Both the position numbers and the translations under genes were made by a program. A stretch of 63,499 nucleotides of DNA, the filler included, from an uncultured bacterium (GTDB lineage Bacteria; CAZSTA01), in NCBI GenBank assembly GCA_964609495.1. It is 5 parts of 5 records of this genome, joined end to end, with 100 filler letters (N's around TTAATTAATTAA, not from the genome) between each part and the next. Parts side by side here need not be neighbours in the genome. Positions count along the whole stretch, not along the records: positions 25,976 to 38,792 come from CAZSTA010000101.1; 4 more parts are not named here. The stretch is one strand, 5' to 3'. The notes under the pieces were generated by a model that was not told the DNA's origin, made no database searches, and saw only the letters and a program-made list of their open reading frames with translations. Shown one piece after another: positions 12,941 through 38,331 of this stretch; position 1 is the stretch's first letter; each line of letters opens with the position of its first letter.

Positions 12941-13040
12941 NNNNNNNNNNNNNNNNNNNNNNNNNNNNNNNNNNNNNNNNNNNNTTAATTAATTAANNNN
13001 NNNNNNNNNNNNNNNNNNNNNNNNNNNNNNNNNNNNNNNN
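12941..13040. other. Artificial contig spacer
   Basis: N-run with TTAATTAATTAA six-frame stop linker. Confidence 0.97.
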
Positions 13041-25875: not shown

Positions 25876-25975
25876 NNNNNNNNNNNNNNNNNNNNNNNNN
25901 NNNNNNNNNNNNNNNNNNNTTAATTAATTAANNNNNNNNNNNNNNNNNNNNNNNNNNNNNNNNNNNNNNNNNNNN
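25876..25975. other. Artificial contig spacer
   Basis: N-run with TTAATTAATTAA. Confidence 0.97.
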
Positions 25976-25994: not shown

Positions 25995-26023
25995 TTGACA
26001 ACAATCCGATTTTTTGGTATACT
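25995..26023 (+). promoter_or_regulatory. Sigma70 promoter of trpL-trpS
   Basis: TTGACA-17-TATACT with TG extension. Confidence 0.8.
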
Positions 26024-26060
26024 ACAAATAGCAGACAGTTTGATTCGGGAAAGGATGGGT

Positions 26061-26153
26061 ATGTTTAGAATGTTGGTTTCCTCAGCCAATTTAATACTTT
26101 GGTGGTGGCGTTGGCGAGTGGGGGAAGTATGCCCATCCGGCTTAAGGTGCTAG
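26061..26153 (+). CDS. trpL: Trp-rich leader peptide (30 aa) upstream of trpS
   Basis: Hand translation MFRMLVSSANLILWWWRWRVGEVCPSGLRC*; SD AAGGA at 26051-26055; 4 Trp codons at 26100-26114. Confidence 0.85.
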   Translation: MFRMLVSSANLILWWWRWRVGEVCPSGLRC

Positions 26154-26179
26154 CCAAAAGCTAATTTTCGCCAAATATA

Positions 26180-26217
26180 AGCCACGGGATACTTCTCAGA
26201 GTCCCGTGGCTTTTTTT
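26180..26217 (+). terminator. Attenuator terminator 1
   Basis: AGCCACGGGAT...GTCCCGTGGCT followed by T-run; 5' arm can alternatively pair with 26135-26144. Confidence 0.85.
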
Positions 26218-26232
26218 GATGCCAGATTTTAC

Positions 26233-26273
26233 AGCCACGGGTTTTTCGGAAAACTCGTGGCTTTTTTTATTTT
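26233..26273 (+). terminator. Attenuator terminator 2
   Basis: AGCCACGGGTTTT-TCGG-AAAACTCGTGGCT followed by T-run; same outer arms as terminator 1. Confidence 0.85.
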
Positions 26274-26293
26274 ATAGAAGATAAAGAGGAGGT

Positions 26294-27334
26294 ATGAAGT
26301 TGAAAGGTCGGATATTGACTGGACACAGACCAACAGGAAGAAGACATCTAGGACATCTAGCAGGGACCTTGCAGAGTTGGGTCAAATTACAGGATGAATA
26401 TGAATGTTTCTTTATCCTCGCCGATTGGCATGTGTTAACTACCGATTATTCGAATTCGGGCAGGATAGGGCAGAATATCATAGATACGCTTATAGATTGG
26501 TTGGCAGCGGGAATCGATCCTGCGAGAAGCACCATCTTCCTCCAGTCGGGGGTGCCAGAGCATGCTGAGTTAACCTTGCTCTTCTCTATGTTAGTCACCG
26601 TATCTCGATTGGAGCGCAATCCCACCTATAAAGAGCAGAAGCAGGAACTCGATCTAGGGGAGCGGGCTTCCTTGGGGCTTCTCACCTATCCAGTGTTACA
26701 AGCGGCGGATATTCTGATTTATAGGGCTAATGTGGTGCCAGTTGGAGAGGATCAACTGCCTCACCTGGAGTTGAGTAGAGAGATCGCTCGACGCTTCAAC
26801 AATATCTACGGAGAGCTATTTCCCGAGCCTCAATCCCTACTAAGTGCTACTCCTAGACTATTGGGGATCGATGGAAGGATGATGCATACCAGCTATGGAA
26901 ATACTATTCCTCTTTCGGCTCCTCCTGAGGAGGTGCGAGAGAAGGTGATGAGTATGACCACCGATCCAGAACGAATACATAAGAGCGATCCTGGTCATCC
27001 AGGGGTATGCAATGTCTTCTCCTATTACCAAGCTTTCCAAAAGGACATAGAAGAGCAAGTTAGGGATGAGTGCGAGAAGGCGAAGATAGGTTGTGTGGAG
27101 TGTAAGCGGAGATTAGCTGAGTTCTTAGTGGAGAAACTACAGCCATTCCGGGAGAAGAGAGCAGAACTTATTGATCAGCCAGATAGGGTGATTCAAATCT
27201 TAGCTGAGGGAACACCAAAGGCAAGGAAGGTCGCTAGGGAGACGATCGAGATGGTTAGGGAGAGGATGAAATTAGATTATACTGCCCAGTGGAATGTTCT
27301 GCCTCCGGCGAAGAATTTGAGTATGTATTTTTAG
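26294..27334 (+). CDS. trpS: Tryptophan--tRNA ligase with atypical KMSKS loop
   Basis: TGHRPTG, HLGH, YPVLQAADIL, VPVGEDQ; KMSKS position reads MMHTS; C-x20-C-x6-C-x2-C. Confidence 0.95.
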   Translation: MKLKGRILTGHRPTGRRHLGHLAGTLQSWVKLQDEYECFFILADWHVLTTDYSNSGRIGQNIIDTLIDWLAAGIDPARSTIFLQSGVPEHAELTLLFSMLVTVSRLERNPTYKEQKQELDLGERASLGLLTYPVLQAADILIYRANVVPVGEDQLPHLELSREIARRFNNIYGELFPEPQSLLSATPRLLGIDGRMMHTSYGNTIPLSAPPEEVREKVMSMTTDPERIHKSDPGHPGVCNVFSYYQAFQKDIEEQVRDECEKAKIGCVECKRRLAEFLVEKLQPFREKRAELIDQPDRVIQILAEGTPKARKVARETIEMVRERMKLDYTAQWNVLPPAKNLSMYF

Positions 27335-27430
27335 GGCTGTATAATGGCGAGTCGAGTCTCCTACTGGGCTCGCCTGAACTTAGAGGAGATAGCTAGAGAG
27401 AAACCATTTTAATTTTTTTGGTATTTACCA

Positions 27431-27459
27431 TTGACAAATCGGTAATACTAAGATATAAT
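27431..27459 (+). promoter_or_regulatory. Consensus sigma70 promoter of the DUF72-mtrB-trp operon
   Basis: TTGACA-17-TATAAT. Confidence 0.8.
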
Positions 27460-27487
27460 ATAAACTCAGGATTTCTCAAAACGTTGG

Positions 27488-27527
27488 GAGTTAGATAGAT
27501 GAGACGAGTTGTAAAGCTATGACTGAG
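27488..27527 (+). promoter_or_regulatory. Candidate TRAP site over the DUF72 initiation region
   Basis: GAG-T-TAG-A-TAG-AT-GAG-AC-GAG-TTGTA-AAG-CT-ATG-ACT-GAG. Confidence 0.5.
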
Positions 27528-28298
27528 ATTTTTTCGGGATGCTCTGGATGGTATTATGAGCATTGGAGAGGGAAATTCTATCCAGAATCGCTTGGTAAGA
27601 GTAAGTGGTTGCAGTTCTACAGTAAGGAATTTAATAGTGTAGAACTTAATAATACTTTCTACCACTTCCCTCGAGAGAGGAACTTAAAAGCCTGGTATTC
27701 CAAAGTCCCTAGCGATTTCAAATTCTCGGTGAAAGCCACTAGGTCGATAACTCATACGAGGAAGTTCTCGAATACTGAAGCTCTTATCAAGGATTTCTAT
27801 TCGGCTTTGGAGTTTCTAGGGGATAAATTAGGTTGTATCCTATTCCAACTCCCTCCTCAGCTTAAGAAGAATCTCGATATATTGGCTAAAATTGTTGAGC
27901 AGTTGGATAAGGAGAAGAGCAACGTCTTGGAATTTCGTGATCCCTCATGGTTTTCTGAAGAGGTATATGAGATACTGAGGGATAACAATATTGGTATGTG
28001 TTCCCTCAGTGCTCCCCGATCTTCGGGATTGCCCGAGGAAATTATAACAACTTCCGATACATACTATATCAGATTTCACGGTAGGGATGATTGGTATAGT
28101 TACAACTACTCCGAGGAAGAATTAAGAAGATGGGCTGAGAAGATTAAGGCTCTCGAAGTTGGAAGTAGAAACAGAGATAATTCAAAGATAACTCCGCCTG
28201 AGAAATTGAAGATATTCATCTATTTCAACAATGATTACGAGGCTTATGCTCCTGAGAATTGCAAGCGCTTGAGGGAACTCATAGTTTCAGCTATCTAA
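27519..28298 (+). CDS. DUF72 (YecE/UPF0759) family protein
   Basis: GCSGWYY.HW...FYP, VELNNTFY, LFQLPP, EFR..SW, YIRFHG, YFNN. Confidence 0.93.
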   Translation: MTEIFSGCSGWYYEHWRGKFYPESLGKSKWLQFYSKEFNSVELNNTFYHFPRERNLKAWYSKVPSDFKFSVKATRSITHTRKFSNTEALIKDFYSALEFLGDKLGCILFQLPPQLKKNLDILAKIVEQLDKEKSNVLEFRDPSWFSEEVYEILRDNNIGMCSLSAPRSSGLPEEIITTSDTYYIRFHGRDDWYSYNYSEEELRRWAEKIKALEVGSRNRDNSKITPPEKLKIFIYFNNDYEAYAPENCKRLRELIVSAI

Positions 28299-28337
28299 CT
28301 AAGCAGTCAAATCTTTAATAAAGTAGGTGAGAAAGGA

Positions 28338-28571
28338 ATGGCAGAAGAGACAGCAGTTTTAGCCGATTTTGTAGCTATCAAAGCTTTGGAGAATGGAGTG
28401 ACCATTATCGGTATCACTAGAGGTAAGGAGAGCAGGGTCCATCATACGGAGAAGCTTGATGCCGGCGAAGTTATGTTCGCTCAATTCACCGAGGATATCT
28501 CAGCCATAAAGATTAGAGGCAGATCCGAAATCACGAGTAAGTATGGTAAAATTACGACTGGGGGTGAATAA
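28338..28571 (+). CDS. mtrB: trp RNA-binding attenuation protein (TRAP)
   Basis: DFVAIKALENGVTIIGITRG...HHTEKLDAGEV..AQFTE..SAIKIRG aligns without gaps to Bacillus MtrB. Confidence 0.95.
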   Translation: MAEETAVLADFVAIKALENGVTIIGITRGKESRVHHTEKLDAGEVMFAQFTEDISAIKIRGRSEITSKYGKITTGGE

Positions 28572-28573
28572 GG

Positions 28574-28756
28574 GAGGTGAGAAGGGTAATATAATAGATT
28601 AGATAAGATTAGATGAGCAGATAGATTAGGATATCCGAAAACCTAAGATATTTATCAACCGAGCTCATCTTAATCAAAAATCCGAGATATTCACAGCTTA
28701 GAGATCATCCGATCTTTAAGGTGTGAACTATAGATCGACAGCTCGGTTTTTCATTT
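28574..28756 (+). promoter_or_regulatory. TRAP-dependent attenuator (NAG array, antiterminator, terminator)
   Basis: TAG-AT-TAG-AT-AAG-AT-TAG-AT-GAG-CAGA-TAG-AT-TAG at 28595-28629; 28608-28619 pairs with 28663-28675; alternatively 28657-28665 pairs with 28740-28748 followed by TTTCATTT. Confidence 0.8.
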
Positions 28757-28842
28757 GGAAGAGATCGCGATCCTACTTAGGAAGCCATCATCGAGCGGAT
28801 TAAAACTTCTGTAGTCGAGTTTAGAAAGATTGAGAGGAGGAA

Positions 28843-30324
28843 ATGATGTATAAACCAACCTTCGCTGAGTTTAAGAGATTAGCTGAGCACGGGAATTTGA
28901 TACCCATTTACAAGGAGATACTTGCCGATCTGGAGACCCCGGTATCCGCCTTTAAGAAGCTTCGAGAGGGAGAGAAGTTCGCCTTCCTTCTTGAGAGCGT
29001 GGAAGGTGGGGAGAGGGTCGCTAGATATTCTTTTCTGGGGAGCGATCCCTTCTTAATCGTTCGGAGTAAAGGGGATAAGTGGCTAATAGAGGAGAATGGA
29101 GAGAAGAGAGAAGAGAAATCGGAAGATGATCCCCTGAGATATCTTGAGAGGATGCTCAAGAGGTATAAGCCGATCGCTCATCACGAATTATCGGAGTTAC
29201 CACGCTTCTATGGTGGCGCAGTGGGATATCTAAGTTATGATATGGTCAGGTACTTCGAGAAGTTGCCCGATCTATTGGAGGACGATCTTCACTTCCCCGA
29301 TTGTGCCTTCCTCTTAACCGATACCATTTTGGTATTCGATCATGTAAAACATAAGATCAAGATCGTAGCTAACGTTTCGGTCGACTCTGATCTCAAGAAA
29401 GCTTATCATAAGGCCCTCGATAAGATAGAGGCGATAGAACATAAATTGAAATCTCCCCAGCCTTATCCCAACGATCATCAGCCTAAGCCCCTGAAGGTGG
29501 AATCCAACTTCTCCCGAGAGGAATTCATCAGGGGTGTGGAAAAAATTAAGGATTACATCCGGGCAGGGGATATCATTCAAGCTGTCTTTTCCCAGAGGTT
29601 CGCTACTACCCTCTCCAACGATTCCTTCGATGTCTATAGGGCTTTGCGCTCCATTAATCCCTCCCCCTATATGTTCTACTTGAAGTTCGATGATTTCAGT
29701 ATCTTAGGTTCTTCTCCCGAACTTTTGGTGCGGGTCGAGGACGATCGAGTCCAATATCGTCCTTTGGCAGGAACTAGGAGGAGAGGGGAGACACCGAAGG
29801 AGGATAAACAATTGGAGGAGGAGTTACTTGCGGACGAGAAGGAGCGGGCGGAGCATGTGATGTTAGTCGATCTAGGGAGGAACGACATCGGTCGAGTCTG
29901 TGGCTACGGGACCGTCAAAGTCTCCGAGTTGATGGCGGTCGAGCGATATTCCCATGTGATGCATATCGTCTCGAACGTTGAGGGGCAACTCAGACCGGAT
30001 AAGACTCCTTTTGATGCCCTACGAGCTTGTTTTCCCGCGGGGACGGTAACCGGAGCTCCGAAGATCAGAGCTATGGAGATAATAGAGGAACTGGAACCAG
30101 TGAGGCGCGGTCCTTATGCGGGATCGGTGGGATATCTGGGATTCTCTGGGAATCTCGATACCTGCATCACTATCCGCACCATTATCGTCAAGGGTGATAA
30201 AGCCTATGTTCAGGCTGGAGCGGGAATCGTCGCCGATTCCGATCCCGAAAGCGAATATCAGGAAACGGCGAATAAGGCTAAAGCCTTGCTAACCGCGATC
30301 GAGGTGGCGGAAAGGGGGCTTTAG
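28843..30324 (+). CDS. trpE: Anthranilate synthase component I
   Basis: [42 protein letters not shown]. Confidence 0.97.
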
Positions 30325-30326
30325 AG

Positions 30327-30944
30327 ATGATCCTAATGATCGATAATTACGATTCTTTTACTTACAATCTGGTCCAGTATCTGGGCGAATTGGGGGCTGA
30401 GCTCTCCGTCTATCGCAATGATAAGATAACCGTGGAGGAGATGAAGAGCCTCGATCCCGATCGGATCGTTATCTCCCCAGGTCCTTGCACTCCTAATGAG
30501 GCTGGGATATCCAACGAGGTAGTCGAGGAGTTCGCGGGGAGAGTCCCGATCCTTGGTGTCTGTCTGGGGAATCAATGTATAGGGCAAGTCTTTGGGGGCG
30601 AGATAGTGCGAGCCCAGAGATTAATGCATGGAAAGACCTCTGAGATCCATCATGATGGTCTTTCGATCTTCTGTGGCTTGCCGAACCCTTTCATCGCCAC
30701 TCGTTACCATTCTTTAGCGATAGATAGGGATAGCGTTCCTGATTGTCTGGAGGTAACTGCTAGGGCTGAGGATGGGGAGATAATGGGAGTGAGGCACAAG
30801 AAATATGCTGTAGAGGGGGTCCAGTTTCATCCCGAGTCGATATTGACTCCGATGGGGAAGAGACTGCTGGCTAACTTTTTGCATAGGGATTTCTCGGATA
30901 AATTGCCTTTGAGTGCTGAGAATATCGAGGTTACTATCAGATAA
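30327..30944 (+). CDS. trpG: Anthranilate/ADC synthase glutamine amidotransferase
   Basis: [31 protein letters not shown]. Confidence 0.96.
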
Positions 30945-30964
30945 GATTAGAGGAGGTCGGGTAA

Positions 30965-31978
30965 ATGATCAAAGAGAGTATTAGAAAGGTAGTTGAGAGG
31001 GAAGATTTAACTTTGCCAGAAGCCCAGCAAACTATGGAGGAGATTATGAGCGGAGAGGCAGCTCCTGCTCAGATAGCTTCCTTTATCACCGCCTTGCGAA
31101 TGAAGGGAGAGACGGTAGAGGAGATCTCGGGCTTTGCCAAGACTATGCGCTCCAAAGCTACCCAGATCAAGACAGAAAGAGAACCACTCATTGATACCTG
31201 TGGAACAGGAGGGGATGGAGCTAAAACCTTCAATATCTCCACCGCTACCGCTTTCGTCGCAGCTGGAGCAGGGATCGCAGTTGCCAAGCATGGAAATCGC
31301 TCGGTATCAAGTAATTGTGGAAGTGCAGATGTCCTGAAGGAGCTAGGGGTCAATCTAGAGCTGAGTCCAGAGAAAGTCGGAGAATGCATCGATGAGGTCG
31401 GTATTGGCTTCCTCTATGCGCCTCTTCTCCACAAAGCGATGAAGTATGCCATCGGTCCCAGAAGGGAGATGGGGATAAGAACGGTCTTTAATATCCTGGG
31501 TCCCCTGACAAACCCTGCGGGAGCTAAGAGACAGATAATGGGCGTCTTCGATATAAATCTGACCGAGGCTTTAGCGGAAGTCCTTCAAAATCTAGGAGGA
31601 GAACATTGCTTCGTTGTCCACAGCGAAGATGGCTTGGACGAGATAACCATCACTGGGGTCACTAAGATATCGGAGGCTAAGGATGGGAAGGTCGATACTT
31701 ACTATCTAGATCCTAGAGAATTAGGCTTCAAGCTTGCCTCCCTGGAGGAAGTGCGCGGAGGAGATGTCAAGAAAAATGCGCAGATGCTCTTGGATGTTCT
31801 AGGTGGAGAGAATGGACCTACGAGGGACATAGTTCTATTGAACTCCGCAGCCGCTATAATCGCGGGAGGGAAGGTCAATGATTTCGCTGAGGGGCTAGAG
31901 TTGGCTAGGGAATCTATAGACTCAGGAGAGGCTATGCGAAAGCTTTCTGCTATGCGAGAGTTCACAAACGCCGTTTAG
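30965..31978 (+). CDS. trpD: Anthranilate phosphoribosyltransferase
   Basis: DTCGTGGD, KHGNRSVSS, GPLTNPA. Confidence 0.97.
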   Translation: MIKESIRKVVEREDLTLPEAQQTMEEIMSGEAAPAQIASFITALRMKGETVEEISGFAKTMRSKATQIKTEREPLIDTCGTGGDGAKTFNISTATAFVAAGAGIAVAKHGNRSVSSNCGSADVLKELGVNLELSPEKVGECIDEVGIGFLYAPLLHKAMKYAIGPRREMGIRTVFNILGPLTNPAGAKRQIMGVFDINLTEALAEVLQNLGGEHCFVVHSEDGLDEITITGVTKISEAKDGKVDTYYLDPRELGFKLASLEEVRGGDVKKNAQMLLDVLGGENGPTRDIVLLNSAAAIIAGGKVNDFAEGLELARESIDSGEAMRKLSAMREFTNAV

Positions 31979-32013
31979 GCACATAATATTGAGAAGAAGG
32001 GGAGAATAAGGAT

Positions 32014-32793
32014 TTGATCTTGGACGATATTATCGCGCATAAAAAAGAGGAGGTCGCAGAGAATAAGAGGAAAGTCCCTCTTTCTGTGTTGAAAGCTAAA
32101 TTAATGGGACTGCCTCCTACTCGTCCCTTCGCCGAGAGGTTGAAGAACTCGCCTCCTATCAAACTGATAGCGGAGATCAAGAAAGCCTCCCCCTCCCGAG
32201 GGGTCATCAGGGAGGATTTCAATCCAATCGCTATCGCTCAGATCTATGAGAAAAGTGGAGCCTCTGCTATCTCAGTCCTCACCGACGAGAGGTTCTTTCA
32301 GGGTCATCTTTCCTCTCTCCGCCGTATCAGTTATAGAAGTAAAGTTCCCCTTTTGCGCAAAGATTTTATCATAGATGAATATCAGATCTATGAATCCCGA
32401 TTATGGCGTGCCGATGCGATCCTCCTCATCGTATCCGTTCTAGGAGGAGAGAAGGTTGCGAACTTCATAAAGCTCGCCTCTGACTTAGGTTTAGATTGCC
32501 TGGTGGAAGTTCACAATGAAGCGGAGTTAGAGGAAGCTTTGAGGGCTTCTGCTGACATAGTAGGAATCAACAATCGTAATTTGAAGGATTTCACTGTAGA
32601 TCTCAATACCACTTTCCATCTTCTAAAGTTTATCCCTGAGAATAAAATAGTGGTAAGTGAAAGCGGGATTTCCACTAGGGATGATGTCCTCTCTTTAGAG
32701 GAAAAGGGGGTAAATGCTATCCTGGTGGGGGAAGCTCTCATGAGAGAAGCTGATATCCAGCGCAAAGTGGAGGAGTTGTTAGGGGTTTCATAG
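32014..32793 (+). CDS. trpC: Indole-3-glycerol phosphate synthase
   Basis: IAEIKKASPS, LRKDF, GINNRNL, SESGI. Confidence 0.97.
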   Translation: MILDDIIAHKKEEVAENKRKVPLSVLKAKLMGLPPTRPFAERLKNSPPIKLIAEIKKASPSRGVIREDFNPIAIAQIYEKSGASAISVLTDERFFQGHLSSLRRISYRSKVPLLRKDFIIDEYQIYESRLWRADAILLIVSVLGGEKVANFIKLASDLGLDCLVEVHNEAELEEALRASADIVGINNRNLKDFTVDLNTTFHLLKFIPENKIVVSESGISTRDDVLSLEEKGVNAILVGEALMREADIQRKVEELLGVS

Positions 32794-32797
32794 GAGT

Positions 32798-33442
32798 ATG
32801 GATATGGGAGTTATGGAGAGGATCGAGGCTGAGGCGAAGAAGATGTTCGTAGAAGCTAAGCCCACTCACGATTGGGATCATATAAAGCGCGTTCTTCATC
32901 TAGTGAGGCGGATGGGGGCCGAAGCTCAGGCGGATCTTCAAATTCTAACCGCGGCCGCGCTCCTCCATGATATAGGACGAGTGGAGGCTGATAAAAGTGG
33001 TGAGTGCCACGCAGAAAAAGGGGCGGAGATGGCGGAAGGGATATTAGAGAAATGCGATTTTCCCTCTGAGAAGAGGAAGGCGGTTATCCATTGTATCCGT
33101 AGCCATCGTTTTCGAGATGATAATGTTCCTAAGACTTTAGAGGCGAAGATCTTATATGATGCGGATAAATTAGACGCGATAGGAGCTATCGGGATATGTC
33201 GAGCTTACTCCTATGCTGGTGAGAATGGTCAGCGTCTATATTCCGATTTTGAGGAGGAGGTCCGTTTAACTAAGGTTGTAGATCACAGCGAGCATACCCC
33301 GGTGGTGGAATTCAAGGTTAAACTGAGCCATATTAAGGATAAGATGCTTACTCCTATGGGGAGGAAGCTCGCTGAGGAAAGACATAAATATATGGTATCC
33401 TTCTTCGAGAGGCTGAAAAGGGAGATCGAAGGCGAACTTTGA
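32798..33442 (+). CDS. HD-domain phosphohydrolase (YedJ-like)
   Basis: HDWDH..RV, LLHDIG, DADKLDAIGA. Confidence 0.9.
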   Translation: MDMGVMERIEAEAKKMFVEAKPTHDWDHIKRVLHLVRRMGAEAQADLQILTAAALLHDIGRVEADKSGECHAEKGAEMAEGILEKCDFPSEKRKAVIHCIRSHRFRDDNVPKTLEAKILYDADKLDAIGAIGICRAYSYAGENGQRLYSDFEEEVRLTKVVDHSEHTPVVEFKVKLSHIKDKMLTPMGRKLAEERHKYMVSFFERLKREIEGEL

Positions 33443-33676
33443 GCGAGGAGGTGATAACTGCTAAAAACTTGCCAAATGAGAATTTTCCCTCCAAGCATCC
33501 ATAAAAGCAGAAGATAACGGCTTCACTCTTGGGTTTTGTAAGCTAGGTTAGGAGCGGTAGAGGGAGGAGAAGTTACCCTAGTTGAGAAGAGCAAATGCGT
33601 TGGATGTGAAAGTCGAAATGTAGGTGTAGTTAAGTTTATAAGTTTAAGGAGAATAGAAAAAGGAGGAAAAATTAGC

Positions 33677-35038
33677 ATGGATGATATAAAGACCATACTT
33701 CCGGAGAGTGAGATGCCTGATGCTTGGTATAATATAGCGGCGGATATACCCCGACCTCTGGCTCCAGCTCTGCATCCGGTTACTCAAAAACCGCTTACTC
33801 CGGATGATCTTGCCCCTATATTCCCGATGGGGCTCATTATGCAGGAGGCTAGTCAAGAGCGCTGGATAGATATCCCTGGGGAGGTGATCGATATCTATCG
33901 TATGTGGAGACCTACTCCTTTACACCGCGCCCGAAGGTTAGAGAAGTTCTTAGATACTCCAGCTAAGATCTACTATAAGAATGAAGGAGTAAGCCCTCCA
34001 GGGAGCCACAAGCCCAACACTGCTGTCGCTCAAGCTTACTACAATAAGCAGGAGGGGGTAAAACGACTGACTACGGAGACGGGAGCAGGACAGTGGGGAA
34101 GTGCCTTGAGTTTCGCCTGTAACATCTTCGGGCTCGACTGCACAGTCTATATGGTTAAGATCAGCTATGACCAGAAGCCCTATCGTAAGTCTATGATGCA
34201 CACCTGGGGAGCCGAGGTTATATCTAGTCCTACCTATGGAACCAAAGTCGGAAGAGCGATCTTGGAGAAGGATCCTGATTCTCTAGGAAGCCTAGGGATA
34301 TCTATTAGTGAAGCGGTGGAGGATGCAGTAACCCATGAGGATAGTAGGTATTCTCTAGGGAGCGTTCTGAATCACGTCATTCTCCATCAGACGATCGTCG
34401 GCTTAGAGGCTAAAAAGCAATTAGAGATGATCGGTGAGTATCCGGATATCCTCATCGGATGCGTTGGAGGGGGAAGTAATATGTCCGGTTTCACTTTTCC
34501 TTTCGTCCAGGACAAGCTTCGATATGGGAAGGAGATGCGAGTCATCGCTGTAGAGCCTACCGCTTGTCCGACTCTAACTAAGGGGCTATACAAATACGAC
34601 TACGGAGATACCGCTCAGATGGCTCCTATAGTGATGATGTATACCCTAGGGCATGACTTCATCCCCCCAGCAATCCACTCCGGGGGATTGCGTTATCACG
34701 GAGATGCTCCCCTGTTATGTTTGCTCTACGATGAAGGGATCGTTGAGGCGGTGGCTTATCATCAGAATTATGCTTTCGAAGCTGCGATTATCTTCGCCAA
34801 ACAGGAGGGAATAGTTCCTGCTCCTGAGACTGCCCATGCCATCAGATCAGCGATCGATGAAGCTTTGAAGTGTAAGGAAAGCGGTGAGAAGAAGACCATC
34901 ATCTTTAATATGAGCGGTCATGGGCATTTCGATCTTGCGGCCTATGATGCTTACCTAGCAGGAGAACTGGAGGATTATGAATATCCAGAGGAGAAGATCG
35001 AGGAGGCTCTTAAGAACCTACCGAAGGTAGAGGTTTAA
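33677..35038 (+). CDS. trpB2: TrpB2-type tryptophan synthase beta
   Basis: [35 protein letters not shown]. Confidence 0.95.
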
Positions 35039-35047
35039 GCTGATAAA

Positions 35048-35082
35048 GGCATCGGATCTGGAGAATTTCTAGGTCCGATGCT
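35048..35082 (+). other. Intra-operon stem-loop after trpB2
   Basis: GGCATCGGATCTGGAG...TTCTAGGTCCGATGCT, no U-tract. Confidence 0.5.
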
Positions 35083-35110
35083 ATCCCTAGGAGAAAATCA
35101 GGAGTAAAAA

Positions 35111-35749
35111 TTGACCAGGATTAAGATATGTGGAATCACTAATTTAGAAGATGCCCAAATAGCAGCGGAGCTAGGGGCTGATGCCTTAGGCTTTATCTTC
35201 GCTCCCAGCCCCCGCCAAGTTAGCCTTCAAAGGGCGAAGGAGATAATCCAAAAACTTCCCCCTTTTCTGACCAAGGTGGGCGTGTTCGTCAACGAGGAGT
35301 TGAATACCGTAGCTCGGGCTATGAGCTACTGTGGATTAGATGTGGTTCAGCTTCATGGGGAGGAAACTCCTGACTACTGCCGTTCGTTGGGGGAGAGGTG
35401 GAGAGTTATAAAGAGTTTCCGAGTTAAGGATGGAGATAGCCTCCTGCCTCTTCCTGATTATGAGGTGAGCGCCTATCTATTAGATACTTATGTAAAGGGT
35501 ATCGCCGGAGGAACGGGAAAGACCTTCAACTGGGAATTAGCTCGGGAAGCCAAGCGATTCGGAAGAATAATACTAGCCGGAGGTCTCAATCCAGAGAATA
35601 TCACTGAGGCTATAGAAACGGTTAAGTGCTATGCGGTAGATGTTAGCAGTGGGATAGAAGCTGAGAGGGGAAAGAAGGATTTTGATAAGATGAGGCTGTT
35701 CATCAAAAGGGCAAAGGAAGCCTCTTTGAATATCGCTTTTGAAATATGA
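35111..35749 (+). CDS. trpF: Phosphoribosylanthranilate isomerase
   Basis: KICGIT, VQLHG.E, GGTG, LAGGL, VDVSSG. Confidence 0.97.
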   Translation: MTRIKICGITNLEDAQIAAELGADALGFIFAPSPRQVSLQRAKEIIQKLPPFLTKVGVFVNEELNTVARAMSYCGLDVVQLHGEETPDYCRSLGERWRVIKSFRVKDGDSLLPLPDYEVSAYLLDTYVKGIAGGTGKTFNWELAREAKRFGRIILAGGLNPENITEAIETVKCYAVDVSSGIEAERGKKDFDKMRLFIKRAKEASLNIAFEI

Positions 35750-36303
35750 AGATAATCGAATTAACTGCTCCTCTGAGAGATGAGGACATAGCTAAGCTTA
35801 GGAGTGGCGATAGAGTATTGTTAAGTGGGGTGCTCTACACCGGTCGGGACTCTGCTCATAAGAGACTGATCGAGGCGATAGAGAGAGGAGAAAAACTACC
35901 CTTCGATCTCCGGGGACAGATAATCTATTACGTAGGACCTGCTCCTGCTCGACCAGATCAGGTGATCGGTCCTGCGGGTCCTACTACTAGCGGGCGAATG
36001 GATTTATACACTCCACCCTTACTGGAAAGAGGATTAAAGGGAACGATTGGGAAAGGGACTCGCTCTAAGATCGTTAAGGAAGCCCTAAAAAAGTATAAAG
36101 CCCTTTACTTCGCTACTCTAGGGGGAGCTGGGGCTCTGCTCTCTCGTTCCATCAAAAAAGCCGAGGTGATAGCTTATAAGGATTTGGGAACAGAGGCGAT
36201 ACGCCTCTTGGAGGTGGAGGATTTTCCCGCTATAGTGATAAATGATATGTATGGAGGGGATCTTTACGAAGAGGGAGTGAGAAAGTATAGACGAGGAAGT
36301 TGA
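35746..36303 (+). CDS. Fe-S hydro-lyase (fumarase/tartrate dehydratase) beta subunit
   Basis: LSG..YTGRDSAH, YYVGP, GPTTSGRM, IGKG. Confidence 0.92.
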   Translation: MKIIELTAPLRDEDIAKLRSGDRVLLSGVLYTGRDSAHKRLIEAIERGEKLPFDLRGQIIYYVGPAPARPDQVIGPAGPTTSGRMDLYTPPLLERGLKGTIGKGTRSKIVKEALKKYKALYFATLGGAGALLSRSIKKAEVIAYKDLGTEAIRLLEVEDFPAIVINDMYGGDLYEEGVRKYRRGS

Positions 36304-36331
36304 ATTATCATACTTTTAGGAGCGTTAAACT

Positions 36332-37537
36332 ATGATAGAGGATACAATAGTATTACCCGATAAGCAAGGACATTTTGGTCCCTATGGGGGGAAATTCGTC
36401 CCCGAAACCTTGATGCCCGCTTTAGAGGAGTTGGAACAAGCCTATCTGGAGGCTAAAGAGAGTGTGGGATTTCAGAGGGAATTAAATTATTACCTCAAAC
36501 AGTATGCTGGTCGTCCAAGCCCTCTCTACTTCGCCGAGAGATTGACCGAAAAATTGGGAGGAGCGAAGATATACCTTAAAAGGGAGGATCTGAATCATAC
36601 TGGCGCTCATAAGATCAATAACACCTTGGGACAGATACTCCTAGCCCAGAAGATGAAGAAGAGGAGAATAATCGCGGAGACCGGAGCTGGACAACACGGA
36701 GTCGCTACCGCTACGGCAGCAGCTATGTTCGGTATGGAGTGCGAGGTATATATGGGTGAGGAGGATATCGAAAGACAAGCTCTGAATGTCTTCCGAATGC
36801 GCCTTCTAGGAGCCAACGTAATCCCAGTCTCCGCTGGGAGTAGAACCTTAAAGGATGCGATGAACGAGGCAATTAGGGATTGGGTCACTAACGTCGAGAA
36901 CACCTATTATCTCATCGGCTCTGTCGCTGGTCCTCACCCCTATCCGATGATGGTAAGAGACTTTCAAGCGATAATTGGTAAGGAGGCTAAAGAGCAGATC
37001 ATAGAGCAGGAAGGGAGATTGCCGGACTATTTGATAGCCTGTGTGGGAGGGGGAAGTAACTCTATGGGACTATTCTATCCCTTCTTCGAGGACGAAGAGG
37101 TGAAGTTCATAGGTGTAGAGGCGGGAGGATTAGGTCTGGCCACTGGAAAGCACGCGGCTTCTTTGAAAGCTGGAAAGCCAGGGATACTTCATGGCGCTTT
37201 CAACTATGTCCTTCAGGACGACGATGGTCAAATTCTCACCACTCATTCTATATCGGCGGGCTTAGATTATCCGGGCGTTGGTCCCGAACACTGCTATTAC
37301 AAGGATATAGGTAGAGCTGAATATGTGGCGGTTACTGATGAGGAAGCTTTAGAGGCCTTCCAATCGCTTACCCAGATAGAAGGTATAATTCCCGCCTTAG
37401 AATCTGCCCATGCTGTAGCTTATACCAAGAAGTTAGCCCCTGAGCTGGATAAAGACGAGATAATTATAATCAACGTTTCAGGAAGAGGAGATAAGGACGC
37501 TTACACGGTAGCTAAAGTCTTGGGGGTGGAACTATGA
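36332..37537 (+). CDS. trpB: Tryptophan synthase beta chain (TrpB1)
   Basis: [34 protein letters not shown]. Confidence 0.98.
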
Positions 37538-38331
37538 ACAGGATCGATGAGAAATTCGGGACTTTGTTGAGGGATGGAGATAAGGCTCTGATGCCCTATG
37601 TAACCGCTGGCTATCCAAGATTAGCCCTTACTAAATCATTGGTGTTAGAGCTGGAGGAGAAGGGAGCAGATATGATCGAATTGGGAGTTCCTTTCTCCGA
37701 CCCGATTGCCGATGGTCCCACTATCCAAAAAGCCTCCCAAGTTGCCCTAGAGAATGGAACAAATTTGAAGAAGATCCTGGCGGTGGTGGAAGATATACGT
37801 CGAGATAGTTCCCTGCCTATAGCTCTTATGAGCTATTACAATCCCATATATGGATATGGCTTAAAGGAATTAGTTCAGGCTGCTAAATCGGTAGGGATCG
37901 ATGGCTTCATCATTCCCGATCTATCTCCCGAAGAGGCAGGGGAGTTCAAAAGTTATACTGACAAAGCTGATTTAGATTTGATATTCCTCTTAGCTCCTAC
38001 TAGCTCTCCTCATCGGATGAAGCTATTGACCGATATGACAAAGGGGTTTATCTATTGTGTCTCCTTAACTGGGGTGACAGGAGCTAGAGAATCTTTGTCT
38101 AAAGGATTAGAGGAACTAGTATCTAGGATAAGAAGCATCACCTCGAAGCCGATCGGAGTTGGCTTTGGAATATCGACTCCGCAACAGGCAAAGATGGTGG
38201 CAGAGTGGGCAGATGGGGTTATCGTAGGTAGCGCGATAATCAGATTGATCGAAAAGGAACGATCCGAAAAGAAGCTTTTAAATTCGGTGGGGAATTTCAT
38301 CAAGAGTTTGAAGGAAGCGATGATTGGTTGA
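37534..38331 (+). CDS. trpA: Tryptophan synthase alpha chain
   Basis: [34 protein letters not shown]. Confidence 0.98.

Follow-up and report, generated by a model that had tools for sequence, protein, structure and literature searches.

Tryptophan regulation is a textbook case of bacteria solving one problem with different RNA switches, and the trp locus considered here appears to use two of them. The locus is a 2.9-kb stretch of contig C101 (CAZSTA010000101.1) from an uncultured bacterium, CAZSTA01 (assembly GCA_964609495.1), and was studied within a window of 63,499 nucleotides, which is the whole stretch of DNA that was analyzed. On this one contig it comprises a promoter, a leader open reading frame (ORF), two terminators, trpS, a second promoter, a DUF72 gene, mtrB (which encodes the subunit of TRAP), a triplet array and trpE.

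The closest model for the region upstream of trpS is the trpL leader of E. coli, which it resembles in its short ORF with clustered Trp codons, its mutually exclusive pairings 1:2, 2:3 and 3:4, its intrinsic terminator ahead of the structural gene and a predicted order of stabilities that favors termination unless the ribosome stalls. It differs from trpL in that the gene presumably controlled encodes a tRNA synthetase and not a biosynthetic enzyme, and in that the Rfam Trp_leader model finds no match; it also has four Trp codons and a peptide of 30 residues, carries the Shine-Dalgarno (SD) sequence and start codon within segment 1, and contains a further predicted pairing, 4:5, that links two terminators. 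The his operon leader of Salmonella and E. coli, with its six segments A-F, offers a second likeness, namely a chain of alternative pairings in which one displaced helix propagates to the next. There, the last helix alone is a terminator, whereas in the present leader both 3:4 and 5:6 are predicted terminators with U runs. Among synthetase genes, trpRS1 of S. coelicolor reportedly carries an attenuator. Classical attenuators have been predicted before trpS2 of Streptomyces avermitilis and, in the part of the same publication available to us, no aminoacyl-tRNA synthetase gene of the Firmicutes is known to use classical attenuation (PMC1262725). As far as that part describes it, the S. avermitilis case shares with ours a leader-peptide attenuator ahead of an auxiliary trpS paralog; our locus differs in that it belongs to another lineage, encodes another tryptophanyl-tRNA synthetase (TrpRS) subtype and adjoins a trp operon under putative TRAP control, and in that the relatives of its trpS use T-boxes.

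On the mtrB side, the model is the trpEDCFBA leader of B. subtilis. The likeness lies in an MtrB homologue and in (G/U)AG triplets spaced by 2 nt; these share sequence with the 5' strand of an antiterminator, and the antiterminator shares sequence with a terminator. In B. subtilis, mtrB is found with folE/mtrA; here it lies directly upstream of its presumed target, apparently in the same transcription unit and behind the DUF72 gene. The present array has 7+3 triplets as against 11, its attenuator is branched, and the genome holds no anti-TRAP above the cut-off. In the available portion of PMC3064811, the attenuators of B. subtilis and B. halodurans are described as weak and TRAP-dependent. The rtpA operon of B. 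subtilis is a further likeness, since it too lets a TRAP organism read tRNA-Trp charging through Trp codons in a leader: uncharged tRNA-Trp induces anti-TRAP at the level of transcription and at that of translation, the latter through a leader-peptide coding region (PMC4027176, in the sections at hand). In those sections, the leader peptide controls initiation of anti-TRAP translation and a T-box controls transcription, whereas the leader described here would be a transcription attenuator controlling a synthetase. The initial annotation had opposed an E. coli solution to a Bacillus solution; going by the accessible parts of both reports, the Streptomyces trpS attenuators (PMC1262725) and the anti-TRAP leader peptide (PMC4027176) make this opposition too sharp.

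We consider it probable that tryptophan is sensed at the locus by two independent switches, each of a known kind: a leader-peptide attenuator for a spare trpS and a TRAP attenuator for the trp genes. By its anatomy, this two-sensor reading is well supported. All the parts of the locus listed in the initial annotation were found where it had placed them; as modeled, the trpS leader shows every part of a ribosome-mediated attenuator (ORF, Trp codons, exclusive folds and terminators), and the mtrB-trpE spacer the anatomy of a TRAP attenuator (array, antiterminator and terminator), both as had been proposed. While each predicted sensor is of a known kind, what is new is that the two occur together, that a Trp T-box has apparently given way to a leader peptide, that the double terminator is coupled and that the TrpRS is of an unusual subtype. 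Full-text literature searches, with the Gutierrez-Preciado comparative reviews outside their scope, returned no description of TRAP combined with a leader-peptide-controlled trpS, and a prior mention (for example, of mtrB by trpE) is possible. The elements of the first switch are as follows; L006 is a metagenome contig whose TrpS is 96% identical to that of the window.

25995-26023, + strand: trpS-leader promoter, TTGACA-17-TATACT, 11/12 matches, with a TG extension; kept in L006
26061-26153, + strand: leader peptide ORF, 30 codons, AUG 26061 (alternative AUG 26055) to UAG 26151-26153; peptide MFRMLVSSANLILWWWRWRVGEVCPSGLRC
26053-26137, + strand: predicted hairpin 1:2, -28.4 kcal/mol; its 5' arm includes the SD and start codon, and it sequesters segment 2
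26122-26197, + strand: predicted antiterminator 2:3, -25.7 kcal/mol; GGAAGUAU, CCC and GGCUUA pair with the 5' arm and loop of T1
26179-26217, + strand: predicted terminator T1 (3:4), stem 26179-26212, then 7 U; -21.8 kcal/mol for the hairpin 26176-26214
26203-26241, + strand: predicted alternative hairpin 4:5, -17.7 kcal/mol for 26199-26245; T1 3' arm CCCGUGGCU with T2 5' arm AGCCACGGG
26233-26268, + strand: predicted terminator T2 (5:6), stem 26233-26262 of 13 pairs, then 7 U; -18.7 kcal/mol for the hairpin 26231-26264
26294/26300-27334, + strand: trpS (PF00579, 1.6e-61)

The leader AUG at 26061 is preceded at a distance of 5 nt by AGGA (26052-26055), and the peptide contains the motif WWWRW, with four Trp codons within codons 14-18 (26100-26108 and 26112-26114). 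From the AUG to the first Trp codon there are 39 nt, which would leave room for a second ribosome on the SD and start region. Folding of the 264-nt leader gives -91.9 kcal/mol (z = -4.53), a value that none of 200 shuffles equals. T2 is the only terminator called by a consensus scan, T1 coming from folding; the two have the arms AGCCACGGG and CGUGGCU in common. The energies rank 1:2 above 2:3 and 2:3 above T1, with 4:5 near T2, and this ranking, which is that expected of a classical attenuator, supports the model. The duplex between segment 2 and the 5' half of T1 (-22.8 against a shuffle mean of -12.9) is equalled by 6 of 2000 dinucleotide shuffles and by none of 200 windows of the trpS coding sequence.

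Folding with a ribosome in place gives results in keeping with the same model. When the RNA is folded from 26116 or 26122 on, as if a ribosome had stalled at the Trp codons, 2:3 forms; 2:3 begins 9 nt past the last Trp codon. For 26116-26250, the fold of lowest energy combines 2:3 with 4:5, at -45.5 kcal/mol. With the ribosome placed at the leader stop codon, its footprint covers GGCUUA and T1 alone forms. Across the genome, frames with a Trp run (at least 3 Trp in 4 residues) occur in 129 places, 99 of them in frames of at most 70 codons, and a single one of these 99, the trpS leader, has a strong terminator in the 260 nt that come after it.

We propose that a sigma-70-type promoter gives rise to a leader of about 265 nt encoding the 30-residue peptide with its four Trp codons. 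When charged tRNA-Trp is scarce, the ribosome would stall at these codons, while a second ribosome could hold the SD and start region; segment 2 (26122-26145) would then be available for pairing with the loop and 5' arm of T1. The T1 3' arm so released would pair with the T2 5' arm, both terminators would be switched off and extra Trp-tRNA synthetase would be made. When Trp-tRNA is plentiful, the ribosome would reach the UAG and cover segment 2, or 1:2 would re-form, and T1 and T2 could fold. Because the T1 3' arm can pair with the T2 5' arm, one stalled ribosome could disable both terminators, and this would also explain why the two have arms in common: displacement of the T1 5' arm frees the 3' arm to sequester the T2 5' arm.

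The gene behind this leader is the second trpS paralog of the genome (TIGR00233, 295 bits against a cut-off of 176.75) and probably starts at TTG 26300; ATG 26294 is not kept in L006. Its class I signatures are altered, with MMHTS in place of KMSKS (within GRMMHTSYGN) and HLGH in place of HLGN. The other trpS, on contig C38, is 54% identical to it, has GRKMSKSYGN and passes the TIGR00233 cut-off; it lies in an operon, 15 nt behind an M50 peptidase gene, with no leader and no Rfam match. The proposal in the initial annotation that tRNA charging controls the synthetase can thus be kept for the extra copy but not for the KMSKS one. Statements on this second trpS, on T-boxes and on anti-TRAP refer to a metagenome bin that is 99.45% complete with 4.26% contamination. 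A separate observation concerns the clade to which the TrpS of the locus belongs, in which KMSKS has become (T/M)MH(T/A/S)S and HLGN has become H(L/I)GH, both catalytic-loop lysines being gone. Among the nearest 120 clusters at 90% identity, xMHxS occurs in 115 (TMHTS in 81) and KMSKS or KMGSS in 3; the six of these clusters that carry an organism name are all from Chloroflexota. At 50% identity, the best 150 cluster representatives include 3 of the xMHxS type, all fragments.

A metagenome scan with TrpS covered 80 loci of 572 relatives, with L006 as the sole close one. It shares with the window both the order trpS-DUF72-mtrB-trpE-trpG and the leader. WWWRW is kept; four base changes in the first codons alter three N-terminal residues and leave the frame open, and the remaining changes in the leader are confined to loops, spacers or the U run. 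Contigs from four DNA sequencing runs yielded near-identical strains only, among them a 202-nt contig of run X9 that spans 26073-26274 with 4 differences from the window. The DNA occurs in marsh and sediment habitats, and no sequencing run recorded as RNA was found to contain the stretch. The next-closest TrpS relatives, L011 (67%), L007 (60%) and L008 (58%), share MMHTS and have, directly upstream, a T-box above the Rfam gathering score, with a GAA-UGG-A specifier and a UGGC bulge. Since these three carry Trp T-boxes there, this class of trpS gene appears to be regulated by tRNA-Trp charging. In our locus the leader peptide stands where the relatives have the Trp T-box, an apparent replacement suggested by sequence comparison; the genome's six T-boxes precede ileS, thrS, cimA, leuA, tyrS and pheS, and none is Trp-related. 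Conservation of the Trp codons in orthologous leaders, on which the initial annotation had staked its proposal, is seen in L006, whose leader is 95% identical, while the more distant relatives have T-boxes instead.

The proposed second switch, centered on the spacer between mtrB and trpE, comprises the following elements.

27431-27459, + strand: second promoter, TTGACA-17-TATAAT, 12/12 matches, for DUF72-mtrB and probably for the trp genes too
27519-28298, + strand: DUF72 gene (PF01904, 7.9e-70)
28338-28571, + strand: mtrB, TRAP subunit of 77 aa (PF02081, 7.1e-34)
28574-28629, + strand: putative TRAP array; core 28595-28629 (UAG UAG AAG UAG GAG UAG UAG), with GAG, GAG and AAG at 28574-28584
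28607-28675, + strand: predicted antiterminator, GAUUAGAUGAGC (28607-18, inside the array) with GCUCAUCUUAAUC (28663-75); duplex -16.4
28657-28756, + strand: predicted attenuator, AACCGAGCU (28657-65) with AGCUCGGUU (28740-48) around a 17-bp hairpin (28690-28727), then UUUCAUUU
28843-30324, + strand: trpE (Pfam)

MtrB scores 115.9 bits with PF02081 (cut-off 21.3), and solved TRAP chains match it at 1e-43 to 2e-20. Across 36 sequences K39 and K58 do not vary, and the protein of the window also has R60. The Lys of EKLD and the Lys/Arg of AIKIRG align with hhsEKLd and savKiRg of solved TRAP; we take these to be the RNA-binding residues of TRAP, as in B. subtilis. We note as a side observation that five TRAP homologues among those closest to the MtrB of the window (P0003, P0005, P0006, P0012 and P0014, 71-76% identical) read AIKIEG or AMKIEG, with Glu for the Arg of KIRG. 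As for anti-TRAP, the initial annotation had seen none, and the genome yields none above the family cut-off, the only PF15777 match (23.8 bits against 32) lying in a 375-aa frame.

The NAG triplets behind mtrB stand at 28574, 28579, 28582, 28595, 28600, 28605, 28610, 28615, 28622 and 28627; the first five of the core, from 28595, keep a 5-nt period, and two UAG at 28622 and 28627 end it. For the triplet chain the score is 6.0, compared with 2.94 on average for shuffles, 12 of 2000 of which reach it (significance of triplets being judged throughout on dinucleotide shuffles of each stretch). In a genome-wide ranking of triplet chains, which is swamped by GAG-rich coding DNA, the trp leader falls outside the top 40. 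The duplex of GAUUAGAUGAGC with GCUCAUCUUAAUC is equalled by 15 of 2000 shuffles, and the attenuator stem forms in folds with the array masked. In L006, the triplets, both attenuator arms and the U run are unchanged and one array spacer base differs; the attenuator insert has 5 substitutions and a 1-base deletion, and a G-G mismatch of the inner hairpin has become C-G. On the + strand, no promoter-like site was found between mtrB and trpE, so mtrB is probably co-transcribed with the trp genes and precedes the target of its own product.

In the proposed mechanism, the consensus promoter would transcribe DUF72 and mtrB, and Trp-loaded TRAP would bind 9-10 (G/U/A)AG triplets in the 271-nt mtrB-trpE spacer. 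Once bound, TRAP would prevent the array from pairing with 28663-28675; the stem 28657-65/28740-48 could then form and transcription would stop before trpE. A further cluster of five GAG/UAG triplets lies in the 5' untranslated region (UTR) of DUF72 (27488-27508, + strand; score 4.0, reached by 5 of 2000 shuffles), where it overlaps a 7-codon mini-ORF (ATG 27499) whose TGA overlaps the DUF72 ATG, triplets and mini-ORF together lying within 27488-27521. From its sequence, this cluster is possibly a site of TRAP autoregulation at which TRAP would throttle its own operon. Elsewhere in the genome, at 5288-5333 of contig C208, 9-10 UAG/GAG triplets spaced by 2 nt come after a promoter-like site and end at the ATG of a long ORF, which encodes more than 317 aa of coiled coil and runs to the contig end; the cluster may be either a further TRAP-type site or a product of chance. 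A similar cluster lies ahead of an ATG on the minus strand of contig C173, at position 60.

TRAP itself is widespread, with 1303 protein clusters and at least 594 stretches in species-representative genomes; most are from Bacillota, and record titles include Aerophobetes, Armatimonadota and Synergistetes. For the arrangement described here, the initial annotation knew no described system. Within 6 kb, mtrB is followed by trpE in 5 of 80 TRAP loci (L088, L089, L101, L124 and L144), and also in L002, which came from a separate search; triplet clusters follow mtrB in all six of these loci and in L006. Neither trpS nor DUF72 occurs within 6 kb of mtrB in any of the 80. TrpS was found in 46 of 50 TRAP-bearing genomes. 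Five TrpS matches in TRAP genomes, of 49-54% identity, each lie right behind an M50-type gene, like the C38 copy, and a T-box adjoins trpS in at least 7 other matches (31-46% identical), among 150 of the 431 T-box matches of 47 TRAP genomes. When 122 trpS upstream stretches were put through a uniform test, a Trp-run frame with a terminator was found in the window and L006 only; L085 also passed and was rejected as a false positive, its frame being inside an M50 peptidase gene. The two-sensor combination is absent from the 120 other trpS upstream regions and from the 80 other TRAP loci examined.

Several results weigh against the two-sensor reading. If pairing across the stalled ribosome is allowed, 1:2 together with T1 still has the lowest energy, so that the attenuator model depends on either steric exclusion or a second ribosome. 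T2 is preferred over 4:5 at equilibrium, and any rescue from T2 must therefore be kinetic. The Rfam Trp_leader model (RF00513) has no match in the locus even at E up to 10. A crude genome scan revealed no convincing leader-peptide attenuator for other amino acids, only 3 weak matches with Ile and Arg runs. The leader of L006 is 95.1% identical in nucleotides and the third codon positions of trpS are 93.9% identical; as the leader is about as alike as these positions, its conservation says little, and no compensatory change can be scored between the trpS leaders of the window and L006. Promoter-like sites in the region number 6 against 5.3 expected from shuffles; since the count is not above chance, such sites carry weight by their position alone. 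On the TRAP side, MtrB scores 116.8 bits, 0.2 bits short of the NCBIfam equivalog cut-off of 117, and the array has a core of 7 triplets, which includes an AAG and a single 4-nt spacer, and a further 2-3 triplets 13 nt upstream, compared with 11 in Bacillus. The attenuator is atypical as well, with a stem of 7-9 bp, a structured insert of 74 nt and an interrupted U run.

The trpS leader also admits other explanations. One holds that the Trp-rich ORF is a by-product and that the leader senses something else, as a remodelled T-box or another tRNA- or protein-binding leader, GGUGGUGGCGUUGGCG being there for RNA reasons. The T-boxes of the trpS relatives indeed also read GGGUGGCACC in their conserved core, UGGC occurs twice within the Trp-codon stretch, a GGU repeat reads Trp in one of three frames, and the lack of a second leader-peptide attenuator in the genome scan fits such a view. 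This explanation nevertheless meets a lack of any T-box match: RF00230 finds none in the locus even at E up to 10, in line with the initial annotation, which had seen none, and the genome-wide T-box search adds none. At gathering score the whole window gives no Rfam match, and at E up to 10 the locus gives 10 sub-threshold matches that reflect terminators only. Nor does the leader contain an NAG array (score 2.0, reached by 1306 of 2000 shuffles). The ORF, for its part, has an SD and a start and stays open in L006 despite the four base changes, and the distances between the Trp codons, segment 2 and the stop codon suit a ribosome model. We regard the by-product explanation as improbable.

About equally improbable, in our estimation, is a different account of the second switch, in which TRAP does bind the array behind mtrB, but with an effect that is weak or falls chiefly on translation or mRNA stability, the long-range stem being no working terminator. 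It draws on the short stem around its 74-nt insert, on the mere 5 U that follow, on the failure of the consensus scan to call the attenuator a terminator, and on the attenuators of B. subtilis and B. halodurans, which, in the portion of PMC3064811 at hand, are also weak and TRAP-dependent. Against this, the array shares sequence with a 12-bp antiterminator, the 3' strand of which shares sequence with the 5' arm of the stem, and arms and U run are unchanged in L006 while the insert varies.

We give still less credence to the idea that the trpS leader is a separate small gene, for a Trp-rich micropeptide or a small RNA, ending in two terminators, with trpS expressed by leak-through or from an unseen promoter and with no Trp control. 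Tandem strong terminators are typical of gene ends, and the T2 region resembles terminator-bearing small RNA models at sub-threshold scores; yet no promoter-like site lies between T1 and trpS, the complementarity of segment 2 to T1 and the arms common to T1 and T2 would be left with no role, and only chance would have placed it before a trpS that has relatives with Trp T-boxes. Least plausible of all, and in our view very improbable, is an arrest peptide like E. coli TnaC, a Trp-containing leader peptide that responds to free tryptophan inside the exit tunnel of the ribosome, by which trpS would be induced at high Trp: peptides of this kind exist, but four clustered Trp codons 9-23 nt before the antiterminator strand are a hunger-sensing layout, the terminators here are intrinsic whereas tna relies on Rho, and induction of a synthetase at high Trp has no obvious use.

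Two independent switches remain our preferred reading, and the two are physically linked, both lying on contig C101. Position 1 of this contig is position 25976 of the window, which places the locus at the contig start. The window itself is made up of at least three contigs (C99, a second stretch and C101), with N runs and a six-frame stop linker between them, as at 12941 onwards and at 25877-25975. An N/TTAATTAATTAA linker at 25877-25975 separates C101 from the preceding part and, the contigs being artificially joined, features on either side of it are not neighbors in the organism. In composition C101 is no outlier, with a GC content of 46.4% (bin, 43.9 +/- 1.6%) and a tetranucleotide distance at the 78th percentile. 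The operon downstream of the array continues on the same contig:

28843-38331, + strand: trpE, trpG, trpD, trpC, an HD-domain gene, a trpB-like PALP gene, trpF, a fumarase C-terminal-like gene, trpB and trpA (Pfam)

Three of these are extra genes in a trp operon, for an HD-domain protein (32798-33442), a second trpB-like PALP enzyme of 453 aa (33677-35038) and a fumarase C-terminal-domain protein (35746-36303), the last sitting between trpF and trpB. An affiliation with Bacillota, against which the initial annotation had measured the arrangement, finds no support. In the genome set compared, the organism stands alone at the phylum level and all 40 genomes searched as relatives share the domain only; the best non-self match of its RecA is 74% identical, with named matches from mixed phyla that allow no placement; and the named TrpS relatives are the Chloroflexota clusters mentioned above.

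A more ambitious view, which we advance tentatively and think unlikely as a whole, is that the locus forms a self-contained two-input tryptophan circuit with no anti-TRAP, in which a six-segment, double-terminator attenuator has replaced the Trp T-box before a Chloroflexota-type TrpRS and antiterminated transcripts run on into DUF72-mtrB and the trp genes. Such read-through from trpS into DUF72-mtrB is possible because no canonical terminator was found after trpS (27335-27430). A hairpin with no U run lies directly 3' of trpS (27346-27374), and one of its U-G pairs has become U-A in L006. If this circuit were true, the tRNA-charging signal would also reach biosynthesis and TRAP dosage.

The predicted leader-peptide attenuator is found in a genome that otherwise uses T-boxes and TRAP, and would represent a clear natural exchange of charging sensors. 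The paired terminators with common arms suggest a simple way for one ribosome to gate two terminators, which could serve design. Finally, the populous TrpRS clade that does without the KMSKS lysines deserves biochemical study.

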